Shown here one piece after another: positions 17,029-64,000 of a DNA stretch of 64,000 nt. The stretch spans positions 1 to 64,000 of the forward strand of contig JAUCBJ010007234.1 in assembly GCA_032718475.1 (NCBI GenBank), read 5' to 3'. Positions within the stretch are counted from its first letter, which is position 1; the number at the start of each line of letters is the position of its first letter. Made by a program: the position numbers and the translations under genes. The notes beneath the pieces are model-generated. The model worked only from the letters and a program-made list of their open reading frames with translations, had not been told where the DNA came from and searched no databases. The stretch comes from Nemertoderma westbladi. Taxonomy: Eukaryota > Animalia > Xenacoelomorpha.

Positions 17029-17575
17029 ATTTTACTCTTTGGACGACAAACAACTAAACAGTCGGTATTCCGCAATGCGAAGCATCGTAATGGCAAACGA
17101 AGAGGAAACAATAAAAATGCCTATTCTAGAACCGGTTGCCGGGTTACATAAGAGCCAGGTAGAAGAATTCGTGGAATACAATGGTGGTCCAGGTATACAG
17201 CACGTTGCTATGGAGACAGACAATATAATCGAGGCGGTGGACTTGTTGCGAAGTCGGGGAGTTCTTTTCATGAAGGCACCTTCGACCTATTATATGATGT
17301 TGCGTGAGCGATTATCTGTATCGAAAGTGAAAGTATTGGAGAGTTTGGATGATGTAGAGCGTTTAGGTTTACTGCTAGACCATGATGAGGAAGGATACAT
17401 TCTGCAAGTGTTTACTAAACCAGTGGAGGATAGACCAACATTGTTTATGGAGATTATCCAAAGGCATAATCATACGGGTTTTGGTGCTGGGAACGTGAAA
17501 GCTTTGTTTGCTGCCGTGGAAATGGAACAGAAGCTGAGAGGTACATTCTTGAACACCGCTAGTAGCAGTGGGTAA
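17029..17575 (+). CDS. HPD: 4-hydroxyphenylpyruvate dioxygenase family, exon 2
   Basis: Acceptor ctag at 17025-17028 joins in frame (HR-FYSLDDKQ). GPGIQHVA, LQVFTKPVEDRPTLFMEIIQR, GFGAGN. Spliced protein is 389 aa. Confidence 0.93.
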
Positions 17576-22004: not shown

Positions 22005-23078
22005 TCAGCCCAGTACCATTGTGTGTATCTTAGCTGACGAGGGCGGGAAAGGCATAGGAACGTGACGCACTAGTCTATAAACCGACCCTGGATGGTCCTC
22101 CGTGTAGAAGGAGCCTCGAGATTTATCCATCGGCGCGGTGGAATCCGAGGAGAACTCGCCACTCAATCTCTCCTTGTTCGCCGCCACCCATTCCCTAAAA
22201 CTCATGACACGAGGGTTGAGCACTCGTGTTGTCTCCATGTTGTACTGTTGATCAACTCGAAGGAAAAACTCAAACATATTGGCTACATCGAGTGCTGCGG
22301 GGTCTTTACCTGCGTAAGCATTGCGGTATTCTTCTACGGTGATTTTAGGATCAATAACTCGTGCGTTGGGTGACAAAGCCTCGCTTAGCGCTTCCGCGTA
22401 ATCAGCCACCGTGAGTTTATCTGCGCTGATTGCAACCGTTTTGCCAACCCAACGGGAACCTTCATCCAATACGCCCCGTACCACATCCCCAACCTGAGCG
22501 ACACTGACACCATCCAATGGAGTAGACCCCATCGGTATCTCTAGACGATAAACGCCATTCGATTCCCTTGAAACTGGTTTGAATCCCCCGAATAAACTCT
22601 CGTACGTAAACGGCAGCAGTAATCCGGTTTTAGGAAGACCCAGTCCGTCTGCGTATATCTCGATTTCGTGTTTGGCATCGAGATGTCTACACAGAATTCC
22701 GATTGTTTTTTCTACAGATCTCCCGGTGTTTAGCACTAAATGTTGGATCCCCGCTGCACGGCAACCGTCCAGTATTGCCTTCCCTTGTCTCACTTCAGTC
22801 AACTCGAAATTTTCTTCATCGAATGCTGTAAACGTAGTTAGAAACACTCCATAAACATCGGTTAGAGCTTCATGTATCGAGTTCATATCGTCTAAGTTGA
22901 CGTTTTTGATTTGAGCGCCTCGAATCTCCAGTTCTTCCAAGTCTGATGAATTTCTTTCTTTTCGTGTTAAACAACATCTGATGATGTAATTATCGGTGCG
23001 GTGACATAGAGCCCTAGCCACTGACGCACCCAAATCGCCCTCACAACCAAATACAGCGATGGTGCGTGGGGGTGACAT
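22005..23078 (-). CDS. NMRAL1: NmrA-like family (NMRAL1/HSCARG-like) atypical SDR, single coding exon
   Basis: IAVFGCEGDLG (GxxGxxG), VYGVFLTT, EVRQGK, HLDAKHEIE, PMGSTPLDGVSV, ANMFEF, LNPRVMSFREWV. First ATG at 23078, just downstream of a ttttacag acceptor at ~23103. Confidence 0.85.
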   Translation of the reverse strand: MSPPRTIAVFGCEGDLGASVARALCHRTDNYIIRCCLTRKERNSSDLEELEIRGAQIKNVNLDDMNSIHEALTDVYGVFLTTFTAFDEENFELTEVRQGKAILDGCRAAGIQHLVLNTGRSVEKTIGILCRHLDAKHEIEIYADGLGLPKTGLLLPFTYESLFGGFKPVSRESNGVYRLEIPMGSTPLDGVSVAQVGDVVRGVLDEGSRWVGKTVAISADKLTVADYAEALSEALSPNARVIDPKITVEEYRNAYAGKDPAALDVANMFEFFLRVDQQYNMETTRVLNPRVMSFREWVAANKERLSGEFSSDSTAPMDKSRGSFYTEDHPGSVYRLVRHVPMPFPPSSAKIHTMVLG

Positions 23079-23658
23079 TATTGCTACCGAATTCAAGTAT
23101 TACTGTAAAAAATATTGATTACAGATATTATTATGTTAAGTAAAAATTCAAATCTATCGAAAAGATTAAATTACAATATTATTTTCAAAAAATTGTTGAC
23201 CAGGTACTGAAAGTATGGTAATAAAACTGCAGGCGAAATATTTATATGTATTTCTACATTTTTATTGAAGACTTTGCCTTATTAACACGCATTAATAAAT
23301 GTGATGATAATAACACATTGCTCGCTCTCAACTAATTTATGCAATGTTTTTTCCGTTGCTACAGGGCAACGGCTAATTATACTCAAATAATAATAATATT
23401 TGGCACCAAACTACTGAAGGCCTACAGTACACAATTACTGAGAGTTTTCAGTATCACACTAACATTTACAAGAAAAGTCGGTTTGTTCGATACTAGCAAA
23501 GGCCAAGATACATTATTTATACTTATACGCATTTTATTAAATTCTTGATGCTTACGATATGATTTAACATTTATTGAGGAAATATTACAAAAATATAACG
23601 ATAATTCGAAAATAACTAATGTATTATAATTAGGCGCGTATTGACAACTTACTTTATA

Positions 23659-32030: not shown

Positions 32031-33794
32031 GCCTACAGCCCTGCTGCCGACTGTAGGGGTCCTTTTGTTACACCCTGAACCAAGTGTGCCTCCTGGGTTA
32101 GGTTACCTAACACTGGTAGAGGAGCATGCCAGTATAGACAGGGCGGGGCTTGTATCATCTCTAATGCAGATGCGTATCAAGCCTTTGCCTTCAATGGTGC
32201 CCTAGGCGCTATAGCCCTCAATGACTTATTTAGTTGACGATAATTACAATTATAATAATTAATAAAATAGTAAAACTACATAAATGATACCGTATCAAAC
32301 AATATTACCATTCTCATAAAATGGACTACAGTGAATTTAAAAAATTGCGCCCAAATTTAAATATATCTAAGTTTAGTCCTGTGTTTAACCAGATAACAGC
32401 GTGAGTGATGAGTAGCCAGACTGTTAACCCAACAGTTCCAGCCATACAGTACAGTGCTGCAGTGCTACAGTCTATCTAAGAAATCCGCGAAAATTATCCT
32501 GACCAATGTTATTCGCAGACAAGCATTCCCAACCCATTCACCACGCATGCTTGGAATTCGATGGATAAATCATTCCTGTTAATGAAATTCTTAGTATGCG
32601 CCTCGCTCTCCTGGCGCTTACGGCTTACCTGAAAACTATTCCCAGACAAGAATCTTTGGCGAATCTCTCCCGCCCTCAAGAAATGTACCAGAACGACTGG
32701 CGAACATGTCGTTCACCACATATGCGCCTAGCACGCTCGTTGTTTACTGGGCTGTACCTGTACCATGTCTGCATGTAGGCCTACCTGCGTACTGGTACTG
32801 TAACATGTATTACAGTACTGCATTACTGTCTCCTCTCACTGTATTTATTATGCATAGCAGCATACAGGCATAGATAGAGGCATACAGGCATAGATAGGGC
32901 CATGCAGTTCAGCATAGTTTCAGAGTTTATTGTTTAGGCTTATTACAGTAGGAGTAGGCCTATTACAGTACGGTATGACTGCAGACTGTATTACCGGTAG
33001 TTATTTCTGTATTCGGGTATTCTATGAATACTGGCTGACTGGTACCGGTACTTTACAGCTTTACCCTTTCTGCCTTTATACAGATAGGCCAATAGCCATA
33101 TAGGCCTAATTGTTCACGTGTGATGTGCACCATACGCATACTGCACACCACATACAGACATAGGCCTATCAGTAGGGAACATACCCTTAAATAAGCTCCA
33201 AAACTGGGTTCTTATTTAAGGAAAATGGCTCTTATTTAGGGGTTTTTGGGCCTTTTTTGGATATTTTTTCGACATAATATGCAAGAACTTGTTTCCGGTA
33301 AAAATACCGCATAATTTTATTTCACAATATAAAAGTTGGGTCTTTCTTGAACATAATGCAAAAAACCAGAAAACATTTCACCGTCCGGTTTTTTTTCTAC
33401 AAGCGTTTTAAAATTGCATCAAAAATACGACCAGTTCCTAATAAGAGGGATTTTTTAAATTTACCTTATTTAAGACATCGAAATTGTACACATAAATACT
33501 AAAAGTCCTTAAATAAGAACTTTTTGACATGGGTTTCATATTTAGGTATACAATTTCATTCCAAAATCTGCATACTCCTTAAATAAATTAAATATTTCTC
33601 ATTTCTCAAATATTAAATTAAATAAATTAAATATCCTTATATAATGTCTCTTATAACCTCGTCTCCCAGCCCCGTCCTCCTTCTGCCCTTAACTGCTTAT
33701 GACAGTTATGACCTCCTAACTGCCTAACCTTTACAGGACATTGCAAGATGCCGAGATAAGGGAGCTTCTGAGCTTAATTTGATAGGTGCAAAAA

Positions 33795-35030
33795 TGCACA
33801 ACGAGCAACAATGACCAACAACGAGCAACAAATGAACAATGAGTAACAAAACAACGAGCAACAATGAGCAACAACAAGTAACATTGAGCAATACTAAAGT
33901 GGTGAAAGTACAACAACGAGCAATAATGAGGAACAACGACTGAACGAGCAACAATGAGCAACAACGAGTAACAATGAGCATCTACAGAACTACGAATACT
34001 GCGAGTAACATTGAGCAACAATGAGAAACAATGAGCAACAACGAGCAAAAATGAGCAATACTGCAATAATAAAGTACAACAACGAGCAACAATGAGCAAC
34101 AGCGAGAAACAACGAACAACAATGAGCAATAATGAGGAACAACGACTGAACGAGCAACAACGAGCAACAATGAGCAACAACGAGTAACATTGAGAGACAA
34201 CGAGCAACAATGAGCAATAATAAAGTACAACAACGAGAAACAATGAGCAACAACGAGAAACAACGAGCAACAATGAGGAACAACGACTGAACGAGCAATA
34301 ATAAAGTACAACAATGAGCAACAACGAGTAACAATGAGTAATAATGAGCAACAATGAGCAATAATAAAAGTACAACAACGAGCAACAACGAGAAACAACG
34401 AGCAACAATGAGGAACAACGACTGAACGAGCAATAATAAAGTACAACAACGAGCAACAACGAGAAACAACGACCAATAATTAGGACATGAGGAACAACGA
34501 GTAACAATGAGCAACAATGACAATGAGTAACAACGGGTAACATTGAGCAATAATAAAGTATAACAACGAGTAACATTGAGCAACAACGAGCAACAATGAG
34601 AAACACTGAGCAACAATGAACAATAATAAAGAACAACAACGAACAACAATGAGCAACAACGAGAAACAACGAGCAATAATGAGCAACAACGACTGAACGA
34701 GCAACAACGAGTTATATAGAGCAACAATGAGCAATAATAAAGTACAACAACGACTGAACGAGCAGCAACGAGTAATATTGAGCAACAATGAGCAATAATA
34801 AAGTACAACAACGAGAAAAAACGAGCAACAATGAGGAACAACGATTGAACGAGCAATAATAAAGTACAACAACGAGCAACAATGAGCAACAACGAGCAAT
34901 AATAGAGTACAACGAGCAACAACGAGCAATAATAAAGTACAACTAACGAGCAACAATGAGCACCAACAAGCAACAATGAGAAATAATAAAGCACAACGAG
35001 CAGCAATGAGCAACAACGAGCAACAAACTG
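33795..35030. repeat. Degenerate 10-bp satellite (ACAACGAGCA/ACAATGAGCA)n
   Basis: About 1.2 kb, strongly A/C strand-biased. It is the source of the spurious Cys/Leu-rich minus-strand ORFs. Confidence 0.95.
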
Positions 35031-35047
35031 CGTCGAACCGGGTTGAA

Positions 35048-35388
35048 TGTGGGGGAGAGTCACGTTCAAGTGAGCGAAACCTTAGCATATGGGTGCTATT
35101 AACGAATTGTCTGTCGTCGTTGTAAATTTTTTATCGCTAATAACTCGGTCATTCCTTGATGAAATTAAACGAAACTTGGTATGTATGTAGTCTGTCAAAA
35201 GATTATAAATAATCTGAAGTTTGGTAAAAAAACAAACGAACGCAATGAGGCAAATTAAGGAGACGAGTATTGTGTTGAACGACCTCTGACTAACGAAAGA
35301 CAACATGTTAATGGGGTGGGGCCCCTATCAGCTAGGGCTAGCTAAGGCTTTGCTCACTTCATGCTGCGTAAAGGTCCCACGAACGTGT
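35048..35388 (+). mobile_element. Short divergent relative of repeat family X
   Basis: TGTGGGGGAGAG start, AATAACTCGG..TCCTTGATGAAAT..AAACTTGGTA core, and AAGGTCCCACGAACGTGT end. Confidence 0.7.
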
Positions 35389-36749
35389 CCCACTGCTGCC
35401 TGAGCCAGTTGAGCCAAAAACGTCACCCAGTCATCATCTTTAACCTTCTAACGTCTATCAGCTGCCCGACGGAACCATATTTGTGCCTGCCTATTGACAT
35501 GACATTGACATTGGTTTTTTTTCACACCTTTCAAGTACAACATTGTGGACAATCCATCTAAGTGGGGCGTAATGCGGAGCAGAAGAGGAAATGCAGGACA
35601 CAAGTTAGTTTTTCGAAACTGTGCGGCGATGTCCAGTCCAGTTACTTGAGTATGTCTCATCGAAATACGTGACAATGTATGTGCGCTCAGATGGGCGATG
35701 GCGATGGGCTATTCTTTTGAATATCAAAGGGCTATTCTATGCTACCGTGTGAGGTAAGAATGCCAGTGCTAGCAACTTCATTATGATACGATATTCTACA
35801 GAGGATTTATAGAGTGCAGTGCAACCATTGTCCTTATCCTTAACCCAACAATTAGCAATATTCAGACTGACATAAATCAAAGAATTATGAAAGAAGTGTA
35901 ACATATACTGTAAGGAATAAGGAATATTTATTTTATTTAAGGAATGTGCAGATTTTGGAATACAATTGTATTCCTAAATAAGAAGCCCAGGTCAAAAAGT
36001 TCTTATTTAAGGACTTTTAGTATTTATGTGTACAATTTCGCTATCTTAAATAAGGTTAATTTAAAAAATCCCTCTTATTTAGGAACTGGTCGTATTTTTG
36101 ATGCAATTTTAAAACGCTTGTAGAAAAAAAACCGGACGGTGAAATGTTTTCTGGTTTTTTGCATTATGTTCAAGAAAGACCCAACTTTTATATTGTGAAA
36201 TAAAATTATGCGGTATTTTTACCTGAAACAAGTTCTTGCATATTATGTCGAAAAAATATCAAAAAAAGGCCCAAAAACCCCTAAATAAGAGCCATTTTCC
36301 TTAAATAAGAACCCACTTTTGGAGCTTATTTAAGGGTATGGGGTATGTTCCCTACTGCCTATTGCAGTATTGCCTTAAGACAGTAAGCTGATAGGCCTAA
36401 GCCTGTACAGCTGTAAGCTTTGTTGTTTGTAACGGTAGCGATTACCGGTCCGGTAACTTACCTGCTTACTGACTTATTGATTTAACTTCTGAACTTGCAT
36501 ATAATTCCTGAATTCAGTACATAGTAGGCCTAATTGGCAGATTGGTGACGTGATCCATGATCAGACCTATACCCAACTGAAGCCCTGCAATACCGGTACC
36601 AGGTACATGCGCTAGGCTGCTGGGTAGGTCCGCTGTCAGCTGTTCGGCCTACCTGCTCAGCTCAGCACTCCTCCAACCAGCCATCGCAACAGCGCCTGCT
36701 GCCTGCCCGTCGCAGCTCGATCCAGCGCTTGAGGATATTGTGAAATTTA

Positions 36750-46236: not shown

Positions 46237-48497
46237 CTACTACTACTAGGTCGAGCGAACTCGGACAGTGGAAATGAGATCCTTCCAGGCTTCCCGATTC
46301 TCCATAGTTGTCGCAATTTCGTTTCTCCCAAGTTCAGTATCCCTTTCAAGTTGATCTATATATGTTATGGCCGGTCGTCCACGACTACGCTTTCCATGAG
46401 TTGGTTGCCAGAGATGTAGATCTGGTATGACCTCATCTTTACTTCGCCAGCAGTGCCCACTGAATCTTAATCTGCGTTCACGGAGGGTGGTTGATACAGG
46501 TGGTATTGTACCATAAAGCTCGGCGTTTGTCATGTGTTGTCTCCAGCTGATGTTTAGGGCTGCCCTTAGTAGTCTTGTGTAGCAACCATCTATTCGTTGT
46601 TCAAGTGATTTAGTCAGTGTCCAGGTCTCACCCCCGTATAAAAATACACTTTCCACTGTGGCTCGAAAGAACTTAGTCTTCAGGTGCCTGGAGAGATCTG
46701 ATTTCCAGATGGTATCCATTTTTGATAGAGCTACCCAAGCCTTTGCTTTCCTAACTTCTATGTCCTTTTTGCTACTCTCTATCCATGATCCAAGGTACTG
46801 GAAGTCATCAACCTTCCTTAGTTGATTATTATCAATGGTTGTCAAGTTCCCATCAACATTAAAGGTCATGAATTCGGTCTTTGTAGCATTTATATGCAAT
46901 CCAACCTCCTTAGCAGCCCTCTCCACTTTATTTAGTAGAAGCTGTGCATCTGCTAGCGTATTAGAGAGCAGGGCGATGTCATCCGCAAAGTCGGTGTCTG
47001 TGACTGTAGTTGCCGGATATCTACTACTTCTGCGTTCTTGAAGTGTGAATCCCAGATCTTCACCCTTTGTGGCCGTCCTCATTGCGTAATCCAGCACAAT
47101 TACAAATAGTAATGGTGCTAATGTGTCACCTTGCAGTACGCCAGCCAGGATTGAGAAAAACTCAGTTTCACCATCTGGTGAGAGTACCTGCGCTTCTGTG
47201 TCACAATATAACAATCCAATGCCAGCAACAATTACTTCTGGTATTCCATAAGCTCTTAGGATTTCAAGCATTTTACCTCTATGGATGGAGTCGAATGCCT
47301 TCTTGAAGTCCACAAAAGTCATGACTGCGGGGAGATTCTTTGACTTAATTCCTTCAATCAGTCTCCGTAGTGCAAGTATCTGAGCTATTGTTGATCTACT
47401 TGGTCGAAATCCGTTTTGGCTCTTACGCAGTAGTTTCTCTATGTGAGGCCTAATCCTATATAGAATCATTTTATTGTATATTTTGGCAGCTACCACAAGC
47501 AGACAGATCCCACGATAGTTTGTTGGTATGCCGAGGTCTCCTTTCTTGGGGAGAGGCTTTAGTTGACCTTTAGTCCAAATTGGTGGTGGCTTTTCCCCTT
47601 TTAACATCCGGTTGCAAACATTCAATAATGGTCTGTTTAGCACTCCGGTTTTCCATACCTCCGCTGGGATTTCATCTAATCCACTCGCTTTATTATTGGA
47701 CATGCTTTTAATGCTTCTTTGGAGTTCGGCAGGTGTGAAGTCCCCTGTTTCTATAGGTAGTGTCTTGTCATATATTTTCCTTGTAGGGCTGACCTCGATG
47801 TTTGGTGGCTGCCCAAGCAAGTTGCTGAAGTGATTTTTCCACTTCCCAACACGTTCTTCAGGACTATCGGCTTTGAGGCGCCCCTTTGCACAACTTTTCC
47901 GACCAGATACCTCATTTACAGTTTGCCAGGTAAGTCTTGATTGTTGCTGTATGTGAGCAGTTGTAATTGCTTCAGTTTTATCCTGTATGTACTTTTCCTG
48001 GCTGATGTTGTAGGCCAATTTAAGATCGTCCTTAGCTTTCTCAACCTTGTTAATGTTTTCAGTTGTTGGTTGTTCGGTTTTAACTTTGTAGGCTATCTTA
48101 AGATCTTCTCTCTTACAAGTAACCTCAGAGTTTTGCCATGGCACATACTGTTTTCGTTTGGGTTTCTGGGGGATATGCCTCTTAGCTGATTCCTTGTGGG
48201 CTGTTATTATATTCTGGTATATTGAATCGGTGGATTGGTCTTCATCCATTGACTGAAGTGCTTCAAAGCGGTTTTGAACTTCTACTGTATAAGCATCCTT
48301 TACAGCATTGTCAGTTCTGAGTTTCTCCCAGTCATAGTTGATTTGCTTGCTTGTCCTGGGTTTGCTGGCTCTCAAACTGAGTCTTATCTCTGCAGTCACA
48401 ATTCTGTGGTCCGAACCAATTAGGTTGAACGAGCTGTATGCCTCGCAGTTGATCATGCTGTTTCTCCACTTTTTGTTTATAAGGATGTAAAATAACG
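46237..48497 (-). mobile_element. 5'-truncated RTE-clade LINE (family B) with intact RT ORF
   Basis: APE C-terminus (YILI...SDHRIV); RT motifs PKKGD, NYRGI, QNGFR, DFKKAFDS, GVLQGD, DFADD, YLGS. (TAG)n tail and 12-bp TSD ATGTGGTGATTA (46225-36, 48498-509). Confidence 0.95.
46246..48490 (-). CDS. Non-LTR retrotransposon reverse transcriptase (N-terminally truncated)
   Basis: Uninterrupted ~745-codon frame with RT motifs. Confidence 0.9.
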
Positions 48498-49694
48498 ATG
48501 TGGTGATTATCAACAACTAAATCGACAGACAAAACCTGACAGATATCCTATGCCTCATATAGCATATCATCAGCTGGCCGGATTAATGATTTGGCGGCCC
48601 GGATGCACTTTTGACTTTTTCACTAGCCCCCCCCCCCCCCCCCCCCCCCCCCCCCCAGTATTTATATTAAGCATTTTCAACTTAATAAAATTAACTAAAT
48701 AAGATAAATTGAAAAAGAAAGTAAAAAATCTACTTTTTTCCCATGTAATACGTAATGACATTCTTAAAATTGGTACTTTTTCGTTGCTTAACCCTATTTG
48801 GCCCGGGGGTGGGGAAGTCATTTTTGTTAGGATCACCCTTGGACCTAAGAGGCCTTGAAGTAATGACGGTTTCTACTGGTAATCTGTCCGGACCGTAAGT
48901 GCAGAAAAGTCTACTGCTGTACCTATATGGAATACTGACAAAAAGCGCGCCACACGCGTTCTGGTTAAACGAAAATCGCGCCACCCATGATATCAAATGC
49001 GCGCCAAGCCAACAATTGACTATGAAATTTTGCAGTAATTGCTTAATTGTAATAATTTATCAGTTTATAATGCTGTAGCCCTACAGTATTTTAACATTAA
49101 AATGCGAGTGTAGCGAGCAAGGAAATTTTCCAATTATATCTGATTATGTTAACATAAATACAGTCTGACAGTAATAGTCAGATAGTGCTGTATAGTTGTA
49201 GTAGTAGTAGTAGTAGGTAAACGTCAACTGACTGTTTTTAAATGCAGATGTGATCAAGATGCGAGCGTAGCGAGCACGAAAATTTTAACATTTCAGCATT
49301 TAAAGTAGGCAAAGCGACTGTTTTCAAATGTCAAATGCAGAAATGCAGATGTCATTAAATTGCGAGCTGGCGAGCGTAGCGAGCACGGAAATTCTGCTGA
49401 ATCATGCAGGCTGTCATGGTTTTATTGGTTTGAAGAATCTGACAATTGAAAAACTTTTGAAACAAGTCATGTTTTTAATGGTCATGCTCAATCCGTCTGT
49501 TTCCATTTGTCCACAGCCAGACAGTGCTAAGAGTAGGTTTACAGTATAAACGCGAGCGAAGCGAGCGGACATTTTTCAATCTTTTTAAACCTATAGAATA
49601 ATTTCAAATAGAGCTGTAGAGTGGGATGTGTTGCCAGTGCACTGCTCTGCTACGCTACCTCCTACTGTCCTAACCTAACCCTACATCCATATTC

Positions 49695-49815: not shown

Positions 49816-50021
49816 ATGTTGAGCAAACTCTACATAAATTCCAACCTGGCTGCTGTACCGTGGTACTGCAGTACTGTAGTACTCTGTAACCGGTATATCA
49901 TGCCTACCGGTGTAATTGTGTTATGTAAAATATATCTGATTGAATATATGTCGGACAGTCAGGAGTGATAAATTAATAGTCATTATTTCATGGTAGCAGA
50001 GCGTGGTTGTTCCTCAACAAA

Positions 50022-50445: not shown

Positions 50446-51531
50446 CCCTCCCCCGGTAACGTGGGGTAAAATAATACCCCAAGGGGATTACTTTTGATAT
50501 TTTTCGACAATCTCTCATATTATGTATGTCCAACTTCATAGTATCTTCCAAAAAACTTGTAATCTAATGATTGTGTGGGTCAAACCCATAAAATTTTGTT
50601 TATGAAAAATGTTATGGGCCCTTAATTTGAAAACAACTTAGTTAGGTAAGATGGGGTATAAAAATACCCCATAACGTTATGGTGCTCGTTTAGTGGTGCT
50701 TTGTGACTCATTTTGGTTTCATTGGTACCACAATGGTCGATTTAGTTGTACTAGACAGCTAGAGGCATGTTTTAACTTTGTCCTTTAAGACCAAATTATC
50801 AGTATTATGAAGCTACTGTATTGTGTATGGCCTGTATTTCACAAGCCAAGACTTCGGCCTAATCGCGATGCGATAGATTGCTAAGTATATGTGAATAATT
50901 CTTATTGTGTAGGCTTTCTTAGCGGTGTTCTGGCCTTTTGGGTCTCATTTTGGGTTCATTGAAACTGCAATGTATAATTTAGTTGGACAATAATCACATT
51001 TTATAACCAAATCATCAGTACTTTTGCAGTCATGGTGTATATTTCATATTACAATTCAAGATATTGTGCTATTGCAGTATTGCGAGGTGATATATCTGTA
51101 TATATATATATATATCACTTTGTTGACTTTTAGTGGTGGTATTTGACTCATTTTATGCTTATTGGAACTGCAATGGTATACTTCAAGGTGTACTTGACCC
51201 CTAACACCACTAAAAAACCTAAAATGAGAAACACTCTCACAGCTAATGCTTCGCTATGATAGTATCTTGTTGCAAAACGCCCCATCGCGACGTTAATGAT
51301 GATCGCGATTGGAGTGGGATAACTTTTGTGCCCGCCATTGAGCGTTGGGTAGACTTCAACTAAATTGAAAAAAAAAATTCACAACTTATTTTTTCACCAT
51401 TTGGCAAATTCTGGGAGGGGGATTGCAGGTGTTTTTCTGTTTAATGTAACTTAAAATGTCTTATCAATTTGGGGTATAAAAATACCCCATGTTACCGTTG
51501 AAGGATAATTTTTTACCTTACCGGGGGAGGG
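50446..51531. mobile_element. piggyBac-like non-autonomous element
   Basis: TTAA|CCCTCCCCCGGTAA ... TTACCGGGGGAGGG|TTAA, with internal GGGGTATAAAAATACCCC palindromes. Confidence 0.9.
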
Positions 51532-51988
51532 TTAAAGAGCGCTGGACTGTCACACACAGAAGAACAACTTGCAAGGACAACTGTCCCTGTTTTAAGTTTC
51601 AAAGGTATGCGAGACACCTTGAAGAAAATTTCAGGGAAGAGAAGTGAGGTTTCATCAGGATTAGGTGAGTTGGATATAAAGCAGGAAGCTTTAGTGTGTT
51701 CGGATGAAATAGGTGAAGATGAGGTATATTTTACTGATAGAGGATTTAAAGGTTACCAGCGTGGAGGAGGAGTTGGTAGGTTTAATTATCGAAGGCCGAA
51801 TCAGTATTCCCGTGGTCAATATAGTGGACATAGTGATCAGTTTGGTCGATGTCAGTTTTCAGATCAGCTTGGCAGAGGTCGGGGTTCTTCATATCAGTTT
51901 GACCGAGGACAAAGTCGGGGTTCTGGTGCAGTAAGAAATCCCCTGGATCGATATGGTAATATAACTAAATGTTTAAGGTGTGGGAGTA

Positions 51989-53185
51989 TGTTCGCGCTTT
52001 CAGACCTTTGGCAGTTTAACCCACCAAATTAAGATGTCTTCTAGATATTAAATCGGTTTTTAGTCTATGACAAGTATTTGATTCACTACACTAGTCGAAA
52101 CCAATCTGTGCGCGATCATTCACCCGCTGGATATTATTCCCAGGAGATTGGGTTCGACGGTTTAATTTTATTGCTATGTAAGCCTAATGTATTATTCGAC
52201 TGACAGTACTATATAATCTCTGACAATATTATTCACCTTCGGTAATATTAACAGTTCCTTTAGGACGTGGCGCTTTATCTATATAAACAGAGTTATGACT
52301 TAAACTACTCACAACGATCTGGCTTAATTATAATTCACATATATGGCGCATTCTTTAGGAATTGCTTCTTTAACAGACTCACTCATACACAATGCTGCAC
52401 AATACTGCACACTAATCTGCCAATCTTCACTGATTTTAGTCACATATAAAAGGAACACAGACTGACTCATGTAGGGTTTATCAAATAACATTAGATTCAC
52501 TTCAAACCACTTTAACATAAGTCACAATCGTTTATCTGTAACCCTTCTCTCTTACCTTTGGTATATCAAGAATATTGGGTTTCGGGGTTATTTATCGTTA
52601 TTCCAAATATAATAATTCATCAACCATATTATGAAGAACTGACGGTAAATAGCAGTATAAAACAACAATGAAAACACTGATTGTTATGAGTTTGCAATGT
52701 TTCAGCAGTCAGTATGTATGATCAGTTAGCAGTTAAAGGATATATGTCCTTGTAATTAAACCTACTAGTGTAAGACTAAAAACTGAAACACGGAGGTGCC
52801 AAAAGCCGGTTCTTAGGCTCTGAGCAAAAACATAACACTGAACTACTGAGTTTCTGTATATACCTCCAACACAGAGATAACAAACGCTCTGATTGGTCAA
52901 CCTGAACAACGAGAGAACAGAGAAACAAAGAAACGTCGACGTGGCAATATCAGCTGCTAGCCGTCGTCATGGTAGCGACACTGTTTTCAAGAGTATCGAG
53001 CTTTTACGTCACGGAATTACGGATTATGTCCTCTAAAGTACAAATACAGAAGAAATAGCTTTTATGTCCGCTAAAACACCAGTACAGCAAGGACACGGCC
53101 CTTTTATGCCTGGTAAACCAACTACAGAGTATTTTACGGGAAAAATAAGGAAAAATAACCGGACAATTCAGCAAAAGCTTTTACA
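51989..53185 (-). repeat. 3' LTR of the BEL element
   Basis: Direct repeat of 62582-63786. Confidence 0.95.
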
Positions 53186-56100
53186 CCGCTCCCAGAAAAT
53201 GGGATTTTCAGTCTATAAAATATAAAAATCACAGTTTCTAAAACATAAAGATACTCTAAACAGTTAGTCTTTCTTGCGCGGACGGCGTTTACGCAGTTTT
53301 TTAAAGCTAGCAAGAGTCATTTTCTCTTTGGGGGAAGCCACTTTACTAGGAGGGCCATAACTCCTGGGTGAAGGGTGCAATATGATTGCATTAAAAGGTT
53401 TGGGTTTACGGTCGGTGTCTCGTCCATTTCGATATGCTTCTCCTCGAGCTGATTTTCCTCCGCTTGTCATGGGATACGTTCGTCCAAAACTCTCGCAGAG
53501 AATAGGGTTTTCTAAGCTTGATATCTTCTTTGAGATTCGAGGTTTCCCAATCGAACTGAGATAAGGCCAATTTGTTTATCGATTGGACTTACTGTTGTAA
53601 CTTACGTTTATCTGAACAAACGCAGGTTTCTTTTTGATCTTTATAGAATAGCGTTTAACTCGTTTCGTACAACGCTCTCCTTCACTTTGATGAAGGGTTG
53701 TATCGCGTTAAACGGGACGACCATACGGTTGGATAATGATATTAGGTGTCTGCGTCATAATCCAGCTAGGTAAGATGGGCGGCTAGCTAGAAATCACTGT
53801 CGGAGTGTTACCGATTAATTGTTAGGGTAGCACTAGATCTTTGAACAGTGAATACAGTCCGCGAGGATCCGCGACACCACCAGGATCGCAGGTCTGAGGT
53901 CCAACTAAGGAATGAGGAGGTTTGACCGAGTATTCCGGGACTCTGATCGTAGGTTTACTCCAGGATCGTTCGAGCCGAGTGAGCATAGGTGATACGTCAA
54001 CAAGTTTCGGTTTACATGGATGTTTATGTCTTTCCGTTTATTATTTGGGTCTAGGGCGTTTATCGTAATAATACCAAAGACGCACGTCTGGTAGGGTAAA
54101 CGCGGGTGACATTTATTTGTTGTTACAATGCTTCTATCAAGAATTCCAAATATACTTTGGAGTTACCGCGTCCATTTGTTTCTTTAGTGTCTTTTCTTTC
54201 GAGCCGATTTCGAATAGAATTTTCGCATTCGAATTTCAGTTTATGGTTCCGACTCCGCTGGGCAGGATATATAGTCGACATAGTCCGTATTGTGTAAATC
54301 GATAGGATGACCAGTAGTTAAGAAGACCATATACGTACCATTACGCTGCGTATATCGAGCAGCGAATTTTCTATAGTCCAACTCGCGCGCGGGCTGCTCT
54401 TGGGACATTGGCGGTTCGATATAACGACCATAGTCCTCCGCAGCAGTTGGACTAACGTCGCCGCGTATTAAGCTATCAACAAACGCTTGCAAAAATAGAG
54501 TATATCGCTCCCCGATACCAAGACCATCTTCTATCAACTCCGTCATATCTGCTATATATGAGTTTATCCATATTATAATGAGTTTATATTTAGGCGAGCG
54601 GGCGTCGCTGCCTACCCCAATCAACCCCGGACAGTACGAGATCCTCAGCGCCGATGTGTCGTCGCCGCTGTACTTTCGCCAACGACGTAGCCGCACAACG
54701 ACAACGACAACCGACACAAGTCACTCGACTGTCCGTCCCAAAGACTTAGATGTACTTCAGGTTTTCCTTGGAGAGTTAGGTTACTTTTACGATTGCGACT
54801 AGCTACTGTAAACACACCTTAGCAGTAACATTCACCTATAAACTCACAAATACCACACACACAACTTGTCACAAATTACACACATTCGGGCCATTTGTCC
54901 GTTAGTCAATGCCTTCCAGAATGTCACTGTATTATTATGTATCCTTGGATACTAGTGCACTATTTATTCCCTATGCTATTCAATGGGACAAGCTTTCTAT
55001 TGTTCTTTTAACTCAATTCTAATTCTAGCGTGGTTGTTGCTATGGTGACATTATGCAAAGCTAGCGGTAGAATTAGAGCAATTCCAATGCATACAGATCT
55101 GGGATGTTATTTAATAGTATTCTTTAATAGTCAATGTTCTGTTTTATACATGACTTTATGAATTTTATCGGCTATTGACTATGTTTGGGAGACTTTCGCA
55201 CACTCATACACATAATAAGATAAATCTCCGCTCCCTTGATCTATTAATTAATGGAATTTTGGGAATGTTATAAATTGCGTAAAAATGGCAATTTATTAAA
55301 TTCATTAAAAGGCATGAATTTAAATTTATTCCCTGAAATTTTATTATTTGATAATTAAATTGACATATTTTGATTCTAGAATATGTCTGGGGACACAAGA
55401 TCCTTAATTCTATGACAATTGTCTTTTTAAGAATATCGGTAAATGCTACGATATCTTAATTGACTAGAATTGCTGAAGGATCTGAATTTTACAGATTTTG
55501 ATTTATTAGATTTGCAAATATTAAATAATTAATATTTGAGATGGGCACCGATTTATTCCAGAACTTGTCTGGGGACGTTAACCACTGATTCTAGAATTTG
55601 TCTTTCAAGTATATCGGTGGGTGCCGCGATATCTTAATCGACTAGAATTACAGATGGTCAAAGGGTTTAACAGATTTATTTTGCGTTATACGCTACTGTT
55701 AAAGGGACATCACGCTACTATATGTATTATTTAATATACGGTATGAGAGCAATATCGCACGAAGCAATGTCAGTGTGAAGAGGCAAGTCGTTTCCAAGGT
55801 CTACCCAGAGCTTGATTTAGCCGAGACACGAGGATCTGAACTTTGCATTCCTAATACTCTGCCTACCAATAATACTTAAATATAGTAGTGGCTTTATTGT
55901 ACTTTAATAAGTACGGACATTTCATCTTACTGTAGTTACGTATTTATAATAGAATACGAGCAGTAAGGAAAGAGAAAAATAATTATTTCTCGCCGTCGCA
56001 CTAAATATAATATAAGTAATTACGTACGCAATAAACACGAATATATTGCACTATTCTACTAAATAATCGCTAAATAATATTCTACTGAATAAAATTAAAG

Positions 56101-56198: not shown

Positions 56199-57323
56199 TT
56201 ACGTTATGGAGTCCCTAGATGTTTGAAGGATTAGGGAGGTGGTCGTGGGAAGAGAATCTTGCCTTCCACAGTTTCCGGAGAGTCCTCCATTCCCTTCCGA
56301 TAAACACAAACGACCGACTGGGTGATTGAGTCGCTGCATCCTGAATACAATTCCAGGTTTCCTCTTCGTCCTGGAATAGTGACGATAGAAACATCGCTCA
56401 AAGTATATGACGGCGTCACAAAGCCGATTCCAGGAGCTATAGTGGTCCGTCGCTCTCTGTAGGAGAGGTGAGAGTCCCTGCGAGACGTCTGATGTTCCAG
56501 AGCTCCAATCGCTCTCTCTGATCTTCATGAAGGATCCACTCGCGGAGGGGAGGCCCAGATCCACGGCGTCGTCCCTGGCAACATGTAATACCGACAGATC
56601 TATCCCGGGTTCAAATAACTCCGATCCACCCGTCCGGGTTTCAGGTTCGACTTTCTCCGCTCCCTTGGCTGGTCTAATCTCAGTCGGAGTAAGATGGGGA
56701 GGCCATTCATTCTCCTTACTCAGGAAGTCGGGTTCACCTAACCGATCTATAGTATCTGTTAGTTCTTGAGGAGTTGCTCCTCTGGAAGCGATGTCCGTTG
56801 GATTAAACTTCTTGGGGCAATATCTCCATTGATCTACATTGGAGCTAAGATTGTCATTATCTGAGGAGTGTGGTGTTCCCTCAGTTGGGTCGTCTCCCTC
56901 ACTAGTATCGTCTTCCCATTCACTCACCTGGCAGACGCGATCTTGAAGCAGTCTTTCCCTGAGCGTTCTACGGGAAGGTCCAGTAAGGTACCAACCTACT
57001 CTAGTTCTTACCGCATAGGTCTGTAGTGGCTGCGGTTGAGCAGGCCGTTTCTCTAATGTCTCCAGCGCCTCATGCGCGTTTTGGCCGATGAGTATTTGCA
57101 CTCCAGGATAATCAGTCTGGAATCGAGGTATGCTAAGATGTTGGATGCTCTCATCCTCGTCCCAATTATAAAGGTCTGCTTGAGTAGTAGCGAAGTTCTT
57201 TATAGCCACCATTTTCACTGACCTTATGCTATGTTCTCCTAGTTCGTCCTGGGGGGTGGACAACTCACCTATATAATAGTCGGCAGCCACAGCAGATTTC
57301 CAAACCTGCATGATCCCTGACAT
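56199..57323 (-). pseudogene. BEL pol remnant lacking RT, RNase H and integrase cores
   Basis: ILIGQN..RTRVGWYLTGP (post-protease) is followed within ~50 aa by WRYCPKKFNPTDIASRG (post-RNase H motif) and later YSSWNRL. Confidence 0.75.
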
Positions 57324-60300
57324 GTTTAGCTTGGTTCGGAACTTGGGTTGTCCAGCAAAGATGTGCTAGTTCTTTATCGATGAATGTTCCTGTGCTACCG
57401 GAGTCCAGGAGGGCGTTCACTATATAGCTCTTCTGAGGTCCGTGGACCTGTAACTGGACTACAGGAAATTCTCGGATTCCTATATTGGAAGTTGGAGCTT
57501 TCCAAGATGGTTGTTGATCGGAAGTAGTTAAGGTAAGGTCGCTGTCTGTGTCTTTCTCATACACAAGTGCTCGATACACTGCGGTGGTGTTTATTAGGTA
57601 ACAGGATTCGTTTTGGTCGGAGAACTCGTCCGTATAGAATCCTTCCATCTCAGATTGATCAGTGTCGTTCACATCACTGAATTGGACATGTAGTTCGGAC
57701 TCACTTACCTGACTCGGGCTGTTTCGTTCGAATTCCGTGTGCAACAAGATATGATGTTTTGCGCCGCACTTTGCACACCTTGCGTCGGAGTTACAGGTTC
57801 GCCGTTGGTGTCCTCGTCTGAGGCAATTATAACACAACCGCTTATCCCACATGACTTCACGTCTATCCTTTAGTGATTTCCTCAGGAATTTATCACACGC
57901 ATTTAAACGGTGGGGCCCGTCGCACAGCACACATTTCGGCTTGATGTTACTTACTTTAACCTGTGCTATGTGGTGCACACTTGTTCTTTCCTCGGGCTTT
58001 CTCACCTGAATTCTTTTAGGAGACGTAGGAAGGGTTTTTTGTACCGGTTCCCTTCTGTCATTGGGTCGAGACTCGGATTTACTTACCTGATCTTTAGGCA
58101 TTTTATTGACATAATAAGATCTGTCAGTGTCTTTCCCGCTGTCCTCTCCTTGAGAAGTTTGGCTTTCACCGTCGTCGGTATAACATACTGGTGTTACCCT
58201 TCTCCTAGAAACGGGTTTCTCACTTACCTTGTTTTCCAATGTCTTCTCTCTGGACTGCCTTAGGAGCTGTAATTTCACTTCTCCATCTAAGAATGACATG
58301 AGATCAGCCATGGTAGGGTCTCGTCGTCGTTGTTCCATCATATATAACACTTTCTTATCCCAGCGTGTACCTACTCCACCCTTCGGTAAAGCAGAAGCCA
58401 CTGCTCTAATAACCATAGCACTCTGATACTCATGAGACTTACCTAGCCAATCTAATTGTCTGCAGATCTCCTGAATTTCATCGGAAAACTCTATAATCCC
58501 GCTGCTAATAAACTTTCGGGGCGCTACCAACTTTGCATACAAATACCCAGCTATGTTATTCCTATTACCATACCTGATGTTTAGTGTATCCCAAACTTGT
58601 CTTAATCCGTCTGGATGTCCAATAAACCTTAACGCCATTAACTTGGGAGATCCTTCCAAGCACTCGATGAGGTATCTAAGTTTTTCTCCATTAGATAGTA
58701 CAGAGTTCTGTATATTATCTTTGTAATATTCATTAAAAGGTAACCATTTCATCTCATCTCCATTGAACTTAACGATCTCTCCCACCTTTACCGCTTGCCG
58801 GGCTTCGGTTCTAGCCATTTGACGCGTAAAACTTTCTTGAACCATCGTGTTATTTAATATCGAGTTATCGGTATATAAATTTCTCGGATTATGATCAGTT
58901 CTATAGGGAATGTCATTATCAACAGGTCTATAATTACCCTTAATAGGGTTCACTATAGGAGTTTCTACTTCGCTAGCAGTATATATGCGTGTAGGCTCCA
59001 CACCTTGCGCATGCGATACTTCAGACCTAACAGGTTGACACATTGTTACAGAGGGTGGTGGTATACCCCTTTGAGTATTTACTAATTTATCGCGTTCGAG
59101 CGCGATACTTTGCTGCACTTCTTGCAACTCTAGTCTACTTTCCCTTACTGTGCCCTTGAACTGCTGGACAGTCTCCTGCATCTGTCCGAGCAGGATATCC
59201 ATCCCCCGTCGTCTCTCGTCCACCCATTCGACCGCCAAAGCGGGAGTCGCCAACGTTGTAGCGGGCGGACGAGGGACAACGGGCGACAAATCTGGAATAT
59301 TTCGCTCGGAGTCCAGGGTATGCACTGTCTCATGGACTGTTCTGTTGGGCACAGGTAGCTTAGTGCTGTGCAAAGGGAATTGAGAAGTAGGTTCAGGGAG
59401 TACAGGTGTCTCTACGACCGAAAGGGTAGCTTCGGGAACAGGCCTAATTATTTCAGGCTCATCTACTATAGTAGGGAGTCTCTCTATTGTAATTATTTGG
59501 TCTGTGGGTTCTGTACTACCTACTTTGGTGTTATTTAGTTGCCTTCTAACAGCTGGAGGCAAATCAGGCAATTTCTGCCGGTGGAATGTTCTTTTACGTC
59601 TGCTTAGGCGAGATCGATTTCTTCCGCCTTCAGTGTCGGTGGTATCGCCTTCCTCAGATGATGTATATCCCTGTCTTTTGGGATTAGATCGATTCATCAT
59701 CTGCATATTACTAGCTGTTAACTGTTTATTTATGCAGTCTTGATTCTCCTGAATGTTTTCCAATTCTAATTGGGTGGTTTCTTCAGCCGCTTTCCGTTCT
59801 GCTTCTGCCACTTTTGCCTCTGCCGCTGCCTCTGCCTCTGCCGCTGCCTCTGCCGCTTTTGCCTCTGCCGCTGCCTCTGCCGCTTTTGCCTCTGCCGCTG
59901 CCTCTGCCGCTTTTGCCTTGGCCGCTGCCTCTGCCGCTTTTGCCTTGGCCGCTACCTCTGCCGCTTTTGCGTTGGCCGCTACCTCTGCCGCCTTTGCCTT
60001 GGCCGCTGCCGCCTTTCTTTCTGCTTCTGCAGCTACCACTGCTGCTTTCTTTCTGTCTTCTATGCGTTTTTTCTTTACTTGCTCTTCTTGGACTCGTGTC
60101 AGGCGGAGTTGTTCATCAAATTTGGCCTGATTCGCAGCCCTCATTTCCACATCGATGGCATCCAACACAAGCTTGGTTCCTTCACTATTAGGGCTAAGTC
60201 CCTCTAACCTTCTCCTCAACTCGTCATCACCTAAAAAACGTTGATAGTCTGACAGATAGATGTCAATGGCATCCCTCTTATGCGGTTTCTCTGCTGTCAC

Positions 60301-60357
60301 TTCGCTCTCGGTTGTATCTAGTAGACTGTCTGACAGGTTCTGCTTTGCGTCAGACAT
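57265..60357 (-). CDS. BEL/Pao Gag-protease polyprotein
   Basis: KFNGDEMKWLPF..EKLRYL (DUF1759-like), triple BEL Zn knuckle (CVLCDGPH..C, CYNCLRRGH..C, CAKCGAKHHILLH), aspartic protease ALLDSGS. Frameshift near 57340. Confidence 0.9.
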   Translation of the reverse strand: MSDAKQNLSDSLLDTTESEVTAEKPHKRDAIDIYLSDYQRFLGDDELRRRLEGLSPNSEGTKLVLDAIDVEMRAANQAKFDEQLRLTRVQEEQVKKKRIEDRKKAAVVAAEAERKAAAAKAKAAEVAANAKAAEVAAKAKAAEAAAKAKAAEAAAEAKAAEAAAEAKAAEAAAEAEAAAEAKVAEAERKAAEETTQLELENIQENQDCINKQLTASNMQMMNRSNPKRQGYTSSEEGDTTDTEGGRNRSRLSRRKRTFHRQKLPDLPPAVRRQLNNTKVGSTEPTDQIITIERLPTIVDEPEIIRPVPEATLSVVETPVLPEPTSQFPLHSTKLPVPNRTVHETVHTLDSERNIPDLSPVVPRPPATTLATPALAVEWVDERRRGMDILLGQMQETVQQFKGTVRESRLELQEVQQSIALERDKLVNTQRGIPPPSVTMCQPVRSEVSHAQGVEPTRIYTASEVETPIVNPIKGNYRPVDNDIPYRTDHNPRNLYTDNSILNNTMVQESFTRQMARTEARQAVKVGEIVKFNGDEMKWLPFNEYYKDNIQNSVLSNGEKLRYLIECLEGSPKLMALRFIGHPDGLRQVWDTLNIRYGNRNNIAGYLYAKLVAPRKFISSGIIEFSDEIQEICRQLDWLGKSHEYQSAMVIRAVASALPKGGVGTRWDKKVLYMMEQRRRDPTMADLMSFLDGEVKLQLLRQSREKTLENKVSEKPVSRRRVTPVCYTDDGESQTSQGEDSGKDTDRSYYVNKMPKDQVSKSESRPNDRREPVQKTLPTSPKRIQVRKPEERTSVHHIAQVKVSNIKPKCVLCDGPHRLNACDKFLRKSLKDRREVMWDKRLCYNCLRRGHQRRTCNSDARCAKCGAKHHILLHTEFERNSPSQVSESELHVQFSDVNDTDQSEMEGFYTDEFSDQNESCYLINTTAVYRALVYEKDTDSDLTLTTSDQQPSWKAPTSNIGIREFPVVQLQVHGPQKSYIVNALLDSGSTGTFIDKELAHLCWTTQVPNQAKHVRDHAGLEICCGCRLLYR

Positions 60358-61714
60358 GCTTATGTGTACAGTTGAATGTCTACTGCTGTATTACAGTCTG
60401 AGCAAGTCTAGTAACTCAGTATTAACTGCTAGCCTAGTAATTAATTACCGGTACTGCTACTCAGTGTAGCGTGATATATATATAATATATTAGAATACCG
60501 GTATGCTTATAGTATATATAACTATTATTACAGACTAGGTTTATCACAGAATACCGGTATAATTTTAGCACAAATATATATAAATATATAATAGGCCTAT
60601 CGGAATACCGGTATACAGCTTACTGTTTGTAGTATATATAATTCTAGAATAGAATTAATTACAAGTACCGGTATAATTTCAGCCTAGATTTATAGAAATA
60701 AGATAATAGGCCTATCGTAAATACCGGTATATCAATTATTTTAGAATAATTGAATTTCTGAACTTTAGGGTTACTTGGTTACTTTAACTTACTTTATTAC
60801 CGTTATTTAAGCAGTAATCCAACTGATATTGAGACCTAATGGTTTTATGGTAGGCCTACTATTTATAAATCGTTAGATTTGATTTATAATGTATTTATAC
60901 CCGTTTTAATGGGTTTAGTCAATGTTTGAAATAAATGTTATTATTTCTGGGGTAATCACTACACAAAGCGGTGCGCTTTTTAGTGAAGTGTTACGTATAG
61001 GACACTAAAACAAATAATTCTAATTTACCTAAGTTACTTAATACTACAAATTACGTACAATTCGGGTGAGATTACAATCTCTAAATAAACACAAAAATTT
61101 ACAAAAAAAAAACACAAAATACGAATTTTTAGGGTAATTTTACAAGAAGTCTACAAACCAGCCTAACAAAGGGTTAGATAACCGGTTATTACAACGGACA
61201 GGGTACTACGGTATTTGAAATAATAAGTAGTAGTAAATACACTGCGTTGTCTAGATAGGAAAATACTACCGCCTGACGACCTATAGCCGTATCGCTATAG
61301 GTTCTACATTATGTATCACGGAGTGTTCCTACCTAGAAGTTAATAGAGCTAATCGAATGTGCCTATCAACCACTTTACAACACAGATATAATGTCTACAA
61401 TAATTACTTCGGAAAGTACTGTACACTAAACCCTAAATTAGGTACGAGTACTTGTACAACAAATAATCAGTAGTTAAATATACTTGAACAGCTAAAAGAA
61501 CCACGGCATCTGCTGGAGTGACCGATGCACAAAATCACCAGTCTTTACCTACGCCGAGCAGCCCGTGTAGTACCGGGGTTAATTTAACTATAGCGGTATG
61601 TATAACAAACACAATTACTGTAGGAACAAACTTGGGGAATGAATGTTGCGGATAATCGCATAAACTCTGAATAATAAATATTACGCTACGCGTACAAACC
61701 ACTCAAACAAAATA

Positions 61715-62240
61715 CAGACCGAACACTGACAGACTACTATCAAGCCTAAACAAACTACGGTATATGCAGACTCCGAAATGATTAGGGAGTATGCGCTCTA
61801 ACCCAGTAGGGCGACTTATTCTTTAGTTGGGGGTTTACCTTACAGCGTTCGCTGCCCCTACTGCCTAACCGTACTTAATCGGACAGATGATCTACACACG
61901 CGGCAATCCGTTCAGACCTAATAATAGCCAGACAACTATCCAGCCTACAAATTATCTAAGTAAAATTATACGCTACCCGTACAGACTTACACAAACAAAG
62001 TACAGACTAAACGATGGCAGACTACTCTCAAGCCTAAATAAACTACAGGACATGCAGACTCCGAAATGATTAGGGAGTATGCGCTCTAACCCAGTAGTGC
62101 GACTTATTCTTTAGTTGGGGGTTTACCTTACAGCGTTCGCTGTCCCTACTGCCTAATCGTACTTAATCGGACAGGTGATCTACACACACTGCAATTCGTT
62201 CGGACTTAACAGCAATCAGACAACAGCTCAGCCTACAAAT
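61715..62240. repeat. ~288-bp direct repeat in the long BEL 5' leader
   Basis: CAGACTCCGAAATGATTAGGGAGTATGCGC... at 61767 and 62055. Confidence 0.85.
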
Positions 62241-62581
62241 CGTCTGTACAATCTGATCAGGCTTACACGCCTTCTGTTCAATACTGGCCTACAAATAAAT
62301 AAAACTTGACAGAAATAAGTAAAATCTCAATAAAAAATCAGGGCGGCCGTTCCCTGATTAAGTACTAAGACCTACCGGTATACAACAATCAAATCAAATA
62401 ATACTAGTGTACTTATACGGAAGTACCGGTTAGGACAGCTAGGCCTACGGAATACAGAAGTACCGGTTCTAGCGGTTGGGCCTACTGACTACTGACCTAC
62501 AGATGTACCGGTTCAGGTTTACCGGTTGACCGGTACTTTCAACTTTATTGCTTACTGCAACAAAGAAGCTATATCCTTTAA

Positions 62582-63786
62582 TGTTCGCGCTTTCAGACCT
62601 TTGGCAGTTTAACCCACCAAATTAAGATGTCTTCTAGATATTAAATCGGTTTTTAGTCTATGACAAGTATTTGATTCACTACACTAGTCGAAACCAATCT
62701 GTGCGCGATCATTCACCCGCTGGATATTCCCGGGAGATTGGGTTCGACGGTTTAATTTTATTGCTATGTAACTATGCTATTGCTATGTAGTATTATTCGA
62801 CTGACAGTACTATATAATCTCTGACAATATTATTCACCTTCGGTAATATTAACAGTTCCTTTAGGACGTGGCGCTTTATCTATATAAACAGAGTTATGAC
62901 TTAAACTACTCACAACGATCTGGCTTAATTATAATTCACATATATGGCGCATTCTTTAGGAATTGCTTCTTTAACAGACTCACTCATACACAATGCTGCA
63001 CAATACTGCACACTAATCTGCCAATCTTCACTGATTTTAGTCACATATAAAAGGAACACAGACTGACTCATGTAGGGTCTATCAAATAACATTAGATTCA
63101 CTTCAAACCACTTTAACATAAGTCACAATCGTTTATCTGTAACCCTTCTCTCTTACCTTCGGTATATCAAGAATATTGGGTTTCGGGGTTATTTATCGTT
63201 ATTCCAAATATAATAATTCATCAACCATATTATGAAGAACTGACGGTAAATAGCAGTATAAAACAACAATGAAAACACTGATTGTTATGAGTTTGCAATG
63301 TTTCAGCAGTCAGTATGTATGATCAGTTAGCAGTTAAAGGATATATGTCCTTGTAATTAAACCTACTAGTGTAAGACTAAAAACTGAAACACGGAGGTGC
63401 CAAAAGCCGGTTCTTAGGCTCTGAGCAAAAACATAACACTGAACTACTGAGTTTCTGTATATACCTCCAACACAGAGATAACAAACGCTCTGATTGGTCA
63501 ACCTGAACAACGAGAGAACAGAGAAACAAAGAAACGTCGACGTGGCAATATCAGCTGCTAGCCGTCGTCATGGTAGCGACACTGTTTTCAAGAGTATCGA
63601 GCTTTTACGTCACGGAATTACGGATTATGTCCTCTAAAGTACAAATACAGAAGAAATAGCTTTTATGTCCGCTAAAACACCAGTACAGCAAGGACACGGC
63701 CCTTTTATGCCTGGTAAACCAACTACAGAGTATTTTACGGGAAAAATAAGGAAAAATAACCGGACAATTCAGCAAAAGCTTTTACA
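62582..63786 (-). repeat. 5' LTR of the BEL element
   Basis: Direct repeat of 51989-53185. Minus-strand CCAAT (~63492-96) and TATA-like TATATACA (~63455-62). Confidence 0.95.
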
Positions 63787-64000
63787 GAGTATTTATCACT
63801 ATGCAGCTAATTGCTTTCAGAGGAGGATTGGAGTTGACGACAATGAAACCGCCCACTTCTGTGATGGTCAAGGGGAGACAGTCAGTGAGGAAGTTGATGT
63901 TCTTCTTACAAGTTACAGAGACATTTCAGGTATGTTTAATGATAAGGGGATGATTTTGGTGAGAGTGATGATGTGTATGTTTTAACAGCTGAGACCAATG

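Follow-up and report, generated by a model that had tools for sequence, protein, structure and literature searches.

A primer-binding site (PBS) without a match to a tRNA is reported for chromoviruses of the Ty3/gypsy superfamily, namely Tf1 and Tf2 of Schizosaccharomyces pombe, Tj1, Tf1/sushi and Tcn1, in the accessible sections of three sources (PMC7175516, PMC4600332, PMC6317226). For plant Ty1/copia elements of the TAR lineage (Houba, Osr-1), self-priming has been predicted, with an LTR-PBS match of at least 10 nt at an offset of 0-5 (accessible sections of PMC6317226). In the case of BEL/Pao, the ICTV description of the Belpaoviridae gives an 18-nt PBS for tRNA-Arg or tRNA-Gly and calls replication poorly understood (PMC8742986). 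The words 'PBS', 'tRNA' and 'priming' do not occur in the accessible main text of the Sinbad paper (PMC554778) or of the BEL/Pao surveys PMC3118150, PMC6238403 and PMC8556966. A search of the literature outside subscription journals and Repbase notes returned no description of self-priming or of a splice-built primer in BEL/Pao; the self-priming literature found, in its accessible parts, concerns Tf1-related Gypsy elements and the plant Copia lineage only.

The window (the whole 64-kb stretch of DNA analysed) contains a BEL/Pao insertion spanning 63786-51989, the features of which are collected in Table 1. As in other BEL/Pao elements, the LTRs run from TG to CA and the insertion is flanked by a 5-bp target-site duplication, the presence of which on both sides fixes the LTR ends independently of the PBS. 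Across 1210 aligned columns, the two LTRs show 3 substitutions and 4 indels; these few differences, together with the duplication, indicate that the insertion is young. LTR depth far exceeds flank depth in the genomic contigs of three sequencing runs, consistent with a high-copy family, depth not being the same as copy number. The 3' LTR is preceded by the polypurine tract-like GGGAGCGG, and a GGGGCCGG-type tract is present in most of the relatives whose 3' LTR is complete. Within the 2.2-kb 5' leader, 61701-61957 and 61989-62245 form a duplication with 288-bp spacing and 88% identity. The element is inserted within the gag of a Copia-like host element, which we take to be Copia/GalEa, and splits its Cys-His knuckle; Pfam gave no match for two pieces of this gag. 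The host gag is broken again at 50459-51500 by ~1 kb of AT-rich DNA, perhaps a DNA transposon.

Table 1. Features of the BEL/Pao element and its insertion site (window coordinates).
Feature	Position	Strand	Remarks
5' LTR	62582..63786	minus	1205 bp, TG...CA
3' LTR	51989..53185	minus	1197 bp
Target-site duplication TACTC	63787..63791, partner 51984-51988	minus	5 bp, on both element sides
PBS TTAAAGGATATA	62570..62581	minus	no TGG; abuts LTR end ...GCGAACA at 62582
12-nt PBS complement	63334..63345	minus	in 5' LTR; contiguous; candidate 3' part of the primer
Same 12-nt PBS complement	52733..52744	minus	in 3' LTR
CCAAT (63497) and TATA-like TATATA (63463)	63458..63497	minus	motif scan, consensus matches only
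Candidate polyadenylation signal AATAAA	62757..62762	minus	implies a long R region
Predicted extension helices	63348..63362	minus	63354-63348/62560-62566 (7 bp); 63362-63358/62550-62554 (5 bp)
Block common to diverged relatives	63331..63372	minus	both flanks different; loose ends and short pieces, 4/4 runs
gag-protease ORF	57265..60357	minus	1030 aa from ATG; DUF1759, Cys-His knuckles, DSG motif
pol remnant ORF	56199..57365	minus	post-protease connector fused to late RNase H piece
159-codon ORF	54241..54720	minus	unknown kind; in 3-kb 3' internal region
Polypurine tract-like GGGAGCGG	53186..53193	minus	before 3' LTR
Copia-like host PBS TGGTAGCAGAGC	49991..50002	plus	TGG-type

The gag-protease ORF matches PF03564 in Pfam (E=1.5e-11), and its homologs are BEL/Pao polyproteins with Peptidase_A17 and DUF5641. 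Indeed, all protein matches of the element are to BEL/Pao, as opposed to the Ty3/gypsy chromovirus polyprotein of Tf1/sushi. When long BEL/Pao homologs were used in tblastn, matches were confined to 56700-59043 of the window and no RT or integrase match was obtained in the element; of a complete PR-RT-RH-IN pol, the matches cover only the protease, the connector and a late piece of RNase H. This identifies the element as a non-autonomous deletion derivative of BEL/Pao, which, as RT and integrase are missing, would need the enzymes of a partner. A word search with the pol remnant gave no longer homolog, and the 159-codon ORF has no match in Pfam or Atlas. The N-terminal region of gag contains a tandem repeat rich in Ala, Glu and Lys (59759-60067). 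Elsewhere in the window are a 756-codon non-LTR reverse transcriptase ORF (46246-48516, minus; RVT_1 E=5.6e-35), an NmrA-like ORF of 364 uninterrupted codons (22005-23099, minus; E=8e-29) in a repeat-rich animal-like region, two uninterrupted glyoxalase/dioxygenase-like ORFs (8035-8664 and 16985-17575, plus; E=1e-6 and 2e-5) and a microsatellite array with a 10-bp period (33180-36340) between 284-nt inverted repeats.

The query used to collect relatives was an alignment of the five full-length proteins with the best matches. The best 80 of 481 confirmed metagenome loci and 9 genome-contig loci were sorted into 51 families, in 19 of which (18 clade families and L088) the LTR ends were defined by repeats alone. 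None of the 89 loci is a nucleotide-level relative of the window element, and a scan of viral contigs yielded no relatives. In the tree (FastTree, rooted at the midpoint; 94 rows, from which low coverage excluded two families and short proteins), L088, which has a TGG site, lies outside a clade containing every other tree locus (support 0.97). The best connector and RNase H matches of the window element fall within the clade, and its connector segment scores a median of 35 bits there and at most 23 outside it; the short protease piece gives its top score with L088, and the remaining segments are non-discriminating. Judged by the connector alone, the RT being absent, the element likely belongs to this clade, which we call Sinbad-like from motifs read by eye, Sinbad itself being absent from the tree. 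Several relatives (L081, L083-L087 and L089) are BEL/Pao elements in contigs filed as bacterial genomes, probably host animal DNA, and L088 is located in a Wolbachia chromosome record. Near-identical complete LTR pairs are present in L083 and L085, and in two families (L060:9478 and L077:91) the LTRs end in TA rather than CA.

On the coding strand of the window element, the 5' LTR is followed directly by TTAAAGGATATA and not by the TGG of a site for tRNA-Arg or tRNA-Gly as in the ICTV description. An earlier sequence-only reading of this DNA had pointed to this site and to a normal TGG-type PBS, TGGTAGCAGAGC, in the Copia host, and we found both as described. It had also claimed that the LTR holds an exact 12-nt complement which would place the primer end at the U5 boundary. 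Such a complement is indeed present in both LTRs, and it forms a helix of exactly 12 bp that begins with the first base past the LTR; as for Tf1, the PBS complement thus lies in the element's own LTR with the helix at the LTR boundary. TATATCCTTTAA occurs three times in the window (63345-63334, 52744-52733 and the PBS itself) against 0.04 expected in shuffles. ARAGORN detected 0 tRNAs within the 64-kb window. Since 10 of its 12 bases are A or T and it was picked after the fact, the 12-mer could be a chance match in an AT-rich LTR. Against this, a helix of at least 12 at offset 0 was reached in 7/20,000 dinucleotide shuffles of the LTR (9/20,000 for offsets 0-3), and within the 9.4-kb internal region a complementarity of 12 nt is attained at only 2 positions.

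A further argument against chance comes from the relatives. A test for contiguous complements mostly failed on these, and an intron was therefore considered: any GT...AG segment of 30-800 nt was removed from the LTR, with GTRAG and polypyrimidine features left out of the search. Among the 18 clade families (drawn from the best 80 of 481 plus 9 loci), 17 have a leader whose first 5 nt contain no TGG, and in 14 an 11-14-nt complement to the PBS appears only after removal of a GT-AG intron from the LTR. In each of these 14, a best junction combines a GTRAG donor with a pyrimidine-rich YAG acceptor; tied alternatives exist in two. This main feature of the clade, the usual assembly of the complement through removal of an LTR intron by splicing, had been absent from the sequence-only reading. 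Contiguous complements like that of the window element occur in 2 of the 18 (L013, 12 nt; L084, 11 nt). Family L064 reaches 10 nt only; its donor is weak, and a TGG is present at +2. L055, a decayed copy, fails (6 with the 3' LTR; 10 with the 5' LTR, at a weak junction only). The TGG element L088 scores 4. Of 1,000 control leader windows, 15 reach 11, none does so contiguously, and 1 reaches 10 at strong splice sites. In a blind search without defined ends, 13 of the 19 end-defined families and 10 of 27 further readable families matched (5 more were too short), compared with 1 of 51 on the opposite strand.

It was found that the PBS and its LTR complement change together over at least 10 different PBS cores, which is the covariation that had been proposed as a check across related families. 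As many of the loci derive from a small number of record series and five families have one core in common, the 14 families are not independent and about 10 cores is a fair count. The sisters L083 and L085 illustrate the pattern, three PBS differences being matched by three differences in exon 1. Scores of 11-12 were obtained for 23 of 380 cross-family pairs, which leaves some room for chance, although most of these pairs are families with a shared core. The pairing might alternatively be structural or regulatory (a switch in packaging, dimerisation or translation that is controlled by splicing), while the primer is a host RNA, for instance a tRNA half. Such a role for a host RNA would agree with the tRNA-Arg or tRNA-Gly that the ICTV gives for the family (PMC8742986) and with the one clade family that has a TGG at +2. 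We nevertheless consider it improbable: 17 of the 18 families have no TGG, the helix in the relatives always starts 0-5 nt past the LTR end, the position required of a primer, and the cores each track their own LTR, which a fixed host RNA would not follow.

Some LTRs lack precisely the segment that splicing would remove. In L079, a 117-nt segment is exactly missing from the 5' LTR, which has a 14-nt contiguous complement, and present in the 3' LTR; the record may be an assembly chimera or RNA-derived, the intron-less form existing regardless. L026 has a full LTR with genomic flank, without the exact segment that is retained in L061 (406 nt, donor GTACGT), L070 and L020. Exact loss at GT-AG ends is what splicing and subsequent reverse transcription would be expected to leave behind. 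The published Sinbad sequence (supplement 1 of PMC554778, the part of that source inspected by eye) has a 386-bp LTR followed by a non-TGG site, and removal of positions 199-233, a 35-nt GT-AG segment with a non-consensus donor, creates an 11-nt complement to 391-401. The exact intron losses at the predicted junctions, together with the controls (1/1,000), refute chance as an explanation for the clade as a whole, and we regard a chance match as extremely unlikely. The DNA thus shows complementarity, covariation, the signatures of splice sites and exact loss of the intron, and the comparison among families strongly supports element-encoded, tRNA-independent priming.

The window element differs from most relatives in several respects. 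Its helix has an offset of 0 (common only to L022) as opposed to 1-5, has no closing G-C pair, and lies 752 nt from the LTR end compared with 44-293 nt. In addition, its complement is contiguous rather than splice-built. An upstream intron was considered on account of acceptor-like sites at 63383 and 63376 and rejected, as there is no GTRAG donor upstream. The sequencing data consist of contigs only from 7 runs (one guessed to be RNA), and these contigs, which cannot reveal transcription starts, show no splice joint at the complement site and no intron-bearing sibling of the element. Donor-like sites with similar upstream bases are located in R at 63156 and 62838 (minus) and could give a PBS-skipping subgenomic mRNA; no joint at either was seen in the contigs.

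The sequence-only reading had placed a CCAAT/TATA-like promoter ~110 nt upstream of the complement. The motif scan agrees, with the TATA-like box 118 nt away and initiator-like consensus matches at 63450, 63442 and 63387; a TATA-like box at 63463 would put the start ~90 nt upstream of the complement site. Duplex prediction extends the pairing beyond the 12-mer by two further helices (shuffle p 0.056). At 63353:62561, frequent family variants would together turn the C-G pair of the window into U-A, and at 63361 the variant changes U-G to C-G, with pairing kept in both cases. The U-A version amounts to 85%/91% of summed contig depth at 63353/62561 in run X1 and 85%/96% in run X3, while the variant at 63353 makes up only a minority (23-28%) in runs X4 and X5, where that at 62561 is fixed (100%), the two positions being scored separately throughout. 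Substitutions listed in 63280-63420 number 3, two of them within the extension helices; with only 3 substitutions in 141 nt, their absence from the 12-mer carries no statistical power. As a general feature of the clade the extension helices are not supported, performing better than shuffles in just 2 of the 18 families. A diverged version of the complement site is present on one loose end in run X3. Since pairing and conservation run up to 63354-63372, the partner of the PBS is probably an internal RNA segment as opposed to the first 12 bases.

This bears on a strict Tf1 arrangement, in which the RNA would start within a base of 63345 and its capped first 11-12 nt would be the primer. The helix of exactly 12 bp, flush with the LTR end, is what such an arrangement would give, and folds starting at 63344-63346 showed the most stable pairing. 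There is, however, no TATA ~30 nt upstream, the TATA-like box being 118 nt off, conserved and paired sequence continues beyond the 12-mer, and the relatives require an upstream exon; we therefore give this arrangement little credence. Of the Tf1-like self-priming put forward from the sequence, the element-encoded and tRNA-independent part is borne out by the covariation, whereas the capped first 11-12 nt probably do not serve as the primer.

Folding of the RNA gave a helix probability of 0.7-1.0 in 7 of 18 combinations of start and end and ~0 in the other 11, which include every start at 63440-63448 and every end at 62300. A primer supplied in trans deserves consideration: a short LTR transcript, or a second packaged genome, would be cut to give the primer, the transcript being spliced in intron-bearing families and ended at the AATAAA of the LTR itself. 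Complementarity and covariation fit a trans primer equally well, both here and in several relatives the LTR contains a polyadenylation signal downstream of the site, and a cis helix would have to close a 752-nt loop and is unstable in long folds. On the other hand, Tf1 provides a precedent in cis (accessible part of PMC7175516), the shorter folds predict cis pairing, and L079, in which the 5' LTR is intron-less and the 3' LTR is not, looks as a cis template would be expected to look, though the record may be a chimera. A trans primer is on this evidence somewhat unlikely, and we lean towards the window element priming reverse transcription with its own RNA in cis, in place of a tRNA.

For the lineage as a whole, we consider it probable that an animal BEL/Pao lineage including Sinbad has replaced the tRNA with a two-exon LTR primer assembled by the spliceosome, such that splicing licenses reverse transcription, and that the window element is a processed, intron-less escapee. 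Transcription would start tens of bases upstream of the complement site; as the primer of the relatives straddles a splice junction, a first exon must be located upstream. In most families, the host spliceosome would excise the LTR intron near the 5' end of the RNA and thereby create an 11-14-nt stretch that pairs back to the PBS. A 3' OH would be freed by cleavage where the helix ends, which by analogy with Tf1 would be the work of the RNase H of RT, and for the window element the cutting RT would be supplied by an autonomous partner. Strong-stop DNA would then copy U5 and R back to the cut and jump to the 3' R. As sequence upstream of the cut would not be included in it, the intron would normally be re-copied from the unspliced 3' LTR. 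Occasional splicing of the 3' copy would produce intron-less LTRs such as those of L013, L084 and L026, and the window element may represent a ready-made form of this kind. The 0-5 unpaired bases between LTR and helix in the relatives would presumably need trimming by integrase.

If correct, reverse transcription would be initiated in a novel manner, by an element-encoded, splice-assembled primer in a third superfamily, and cDNA synthesis would be coupled to host splicing. Such elements could possibly be freed from the tRNA supply and from tRNA-fragment silencing. It would also explain the failure of PBS finders on BEL/Pao relatives, and offers a simple annotation rule.

Reportedly, the C. elegans BEL element Cer7 has been proposed to provide its own tRNA-like primer; this is said to involve a tRNA-like fold for a TGG-type site, as opposed to an LTR complement or a splice junction. 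The window element shares with the Sinbad-like lineage of the Belpaoviridae a DUF1759 gag, Cys-His knuckles, TG...CA LTRs and a 5-bp duplication. Sinbad itself, read by eye in the accessible part of PMC554778, has the same type of non-TGG site with a split complement, in contrast to the contiguous complement of the window element. The plant TAR elements are Copia; their complement is contiguous, and the accessible sections of the source mention no intron, whereas in most of the BEL/Pao relatives the complement is split. The Tf1/sushi type, as described in the accessible sections, resembles the window element in its non-tRNA PBS at the 5' LTR and its 11-12-nt complement within its own LTR, but belongs to Ty3/gypsy and hence to a different superfamily from BEL/Pao.
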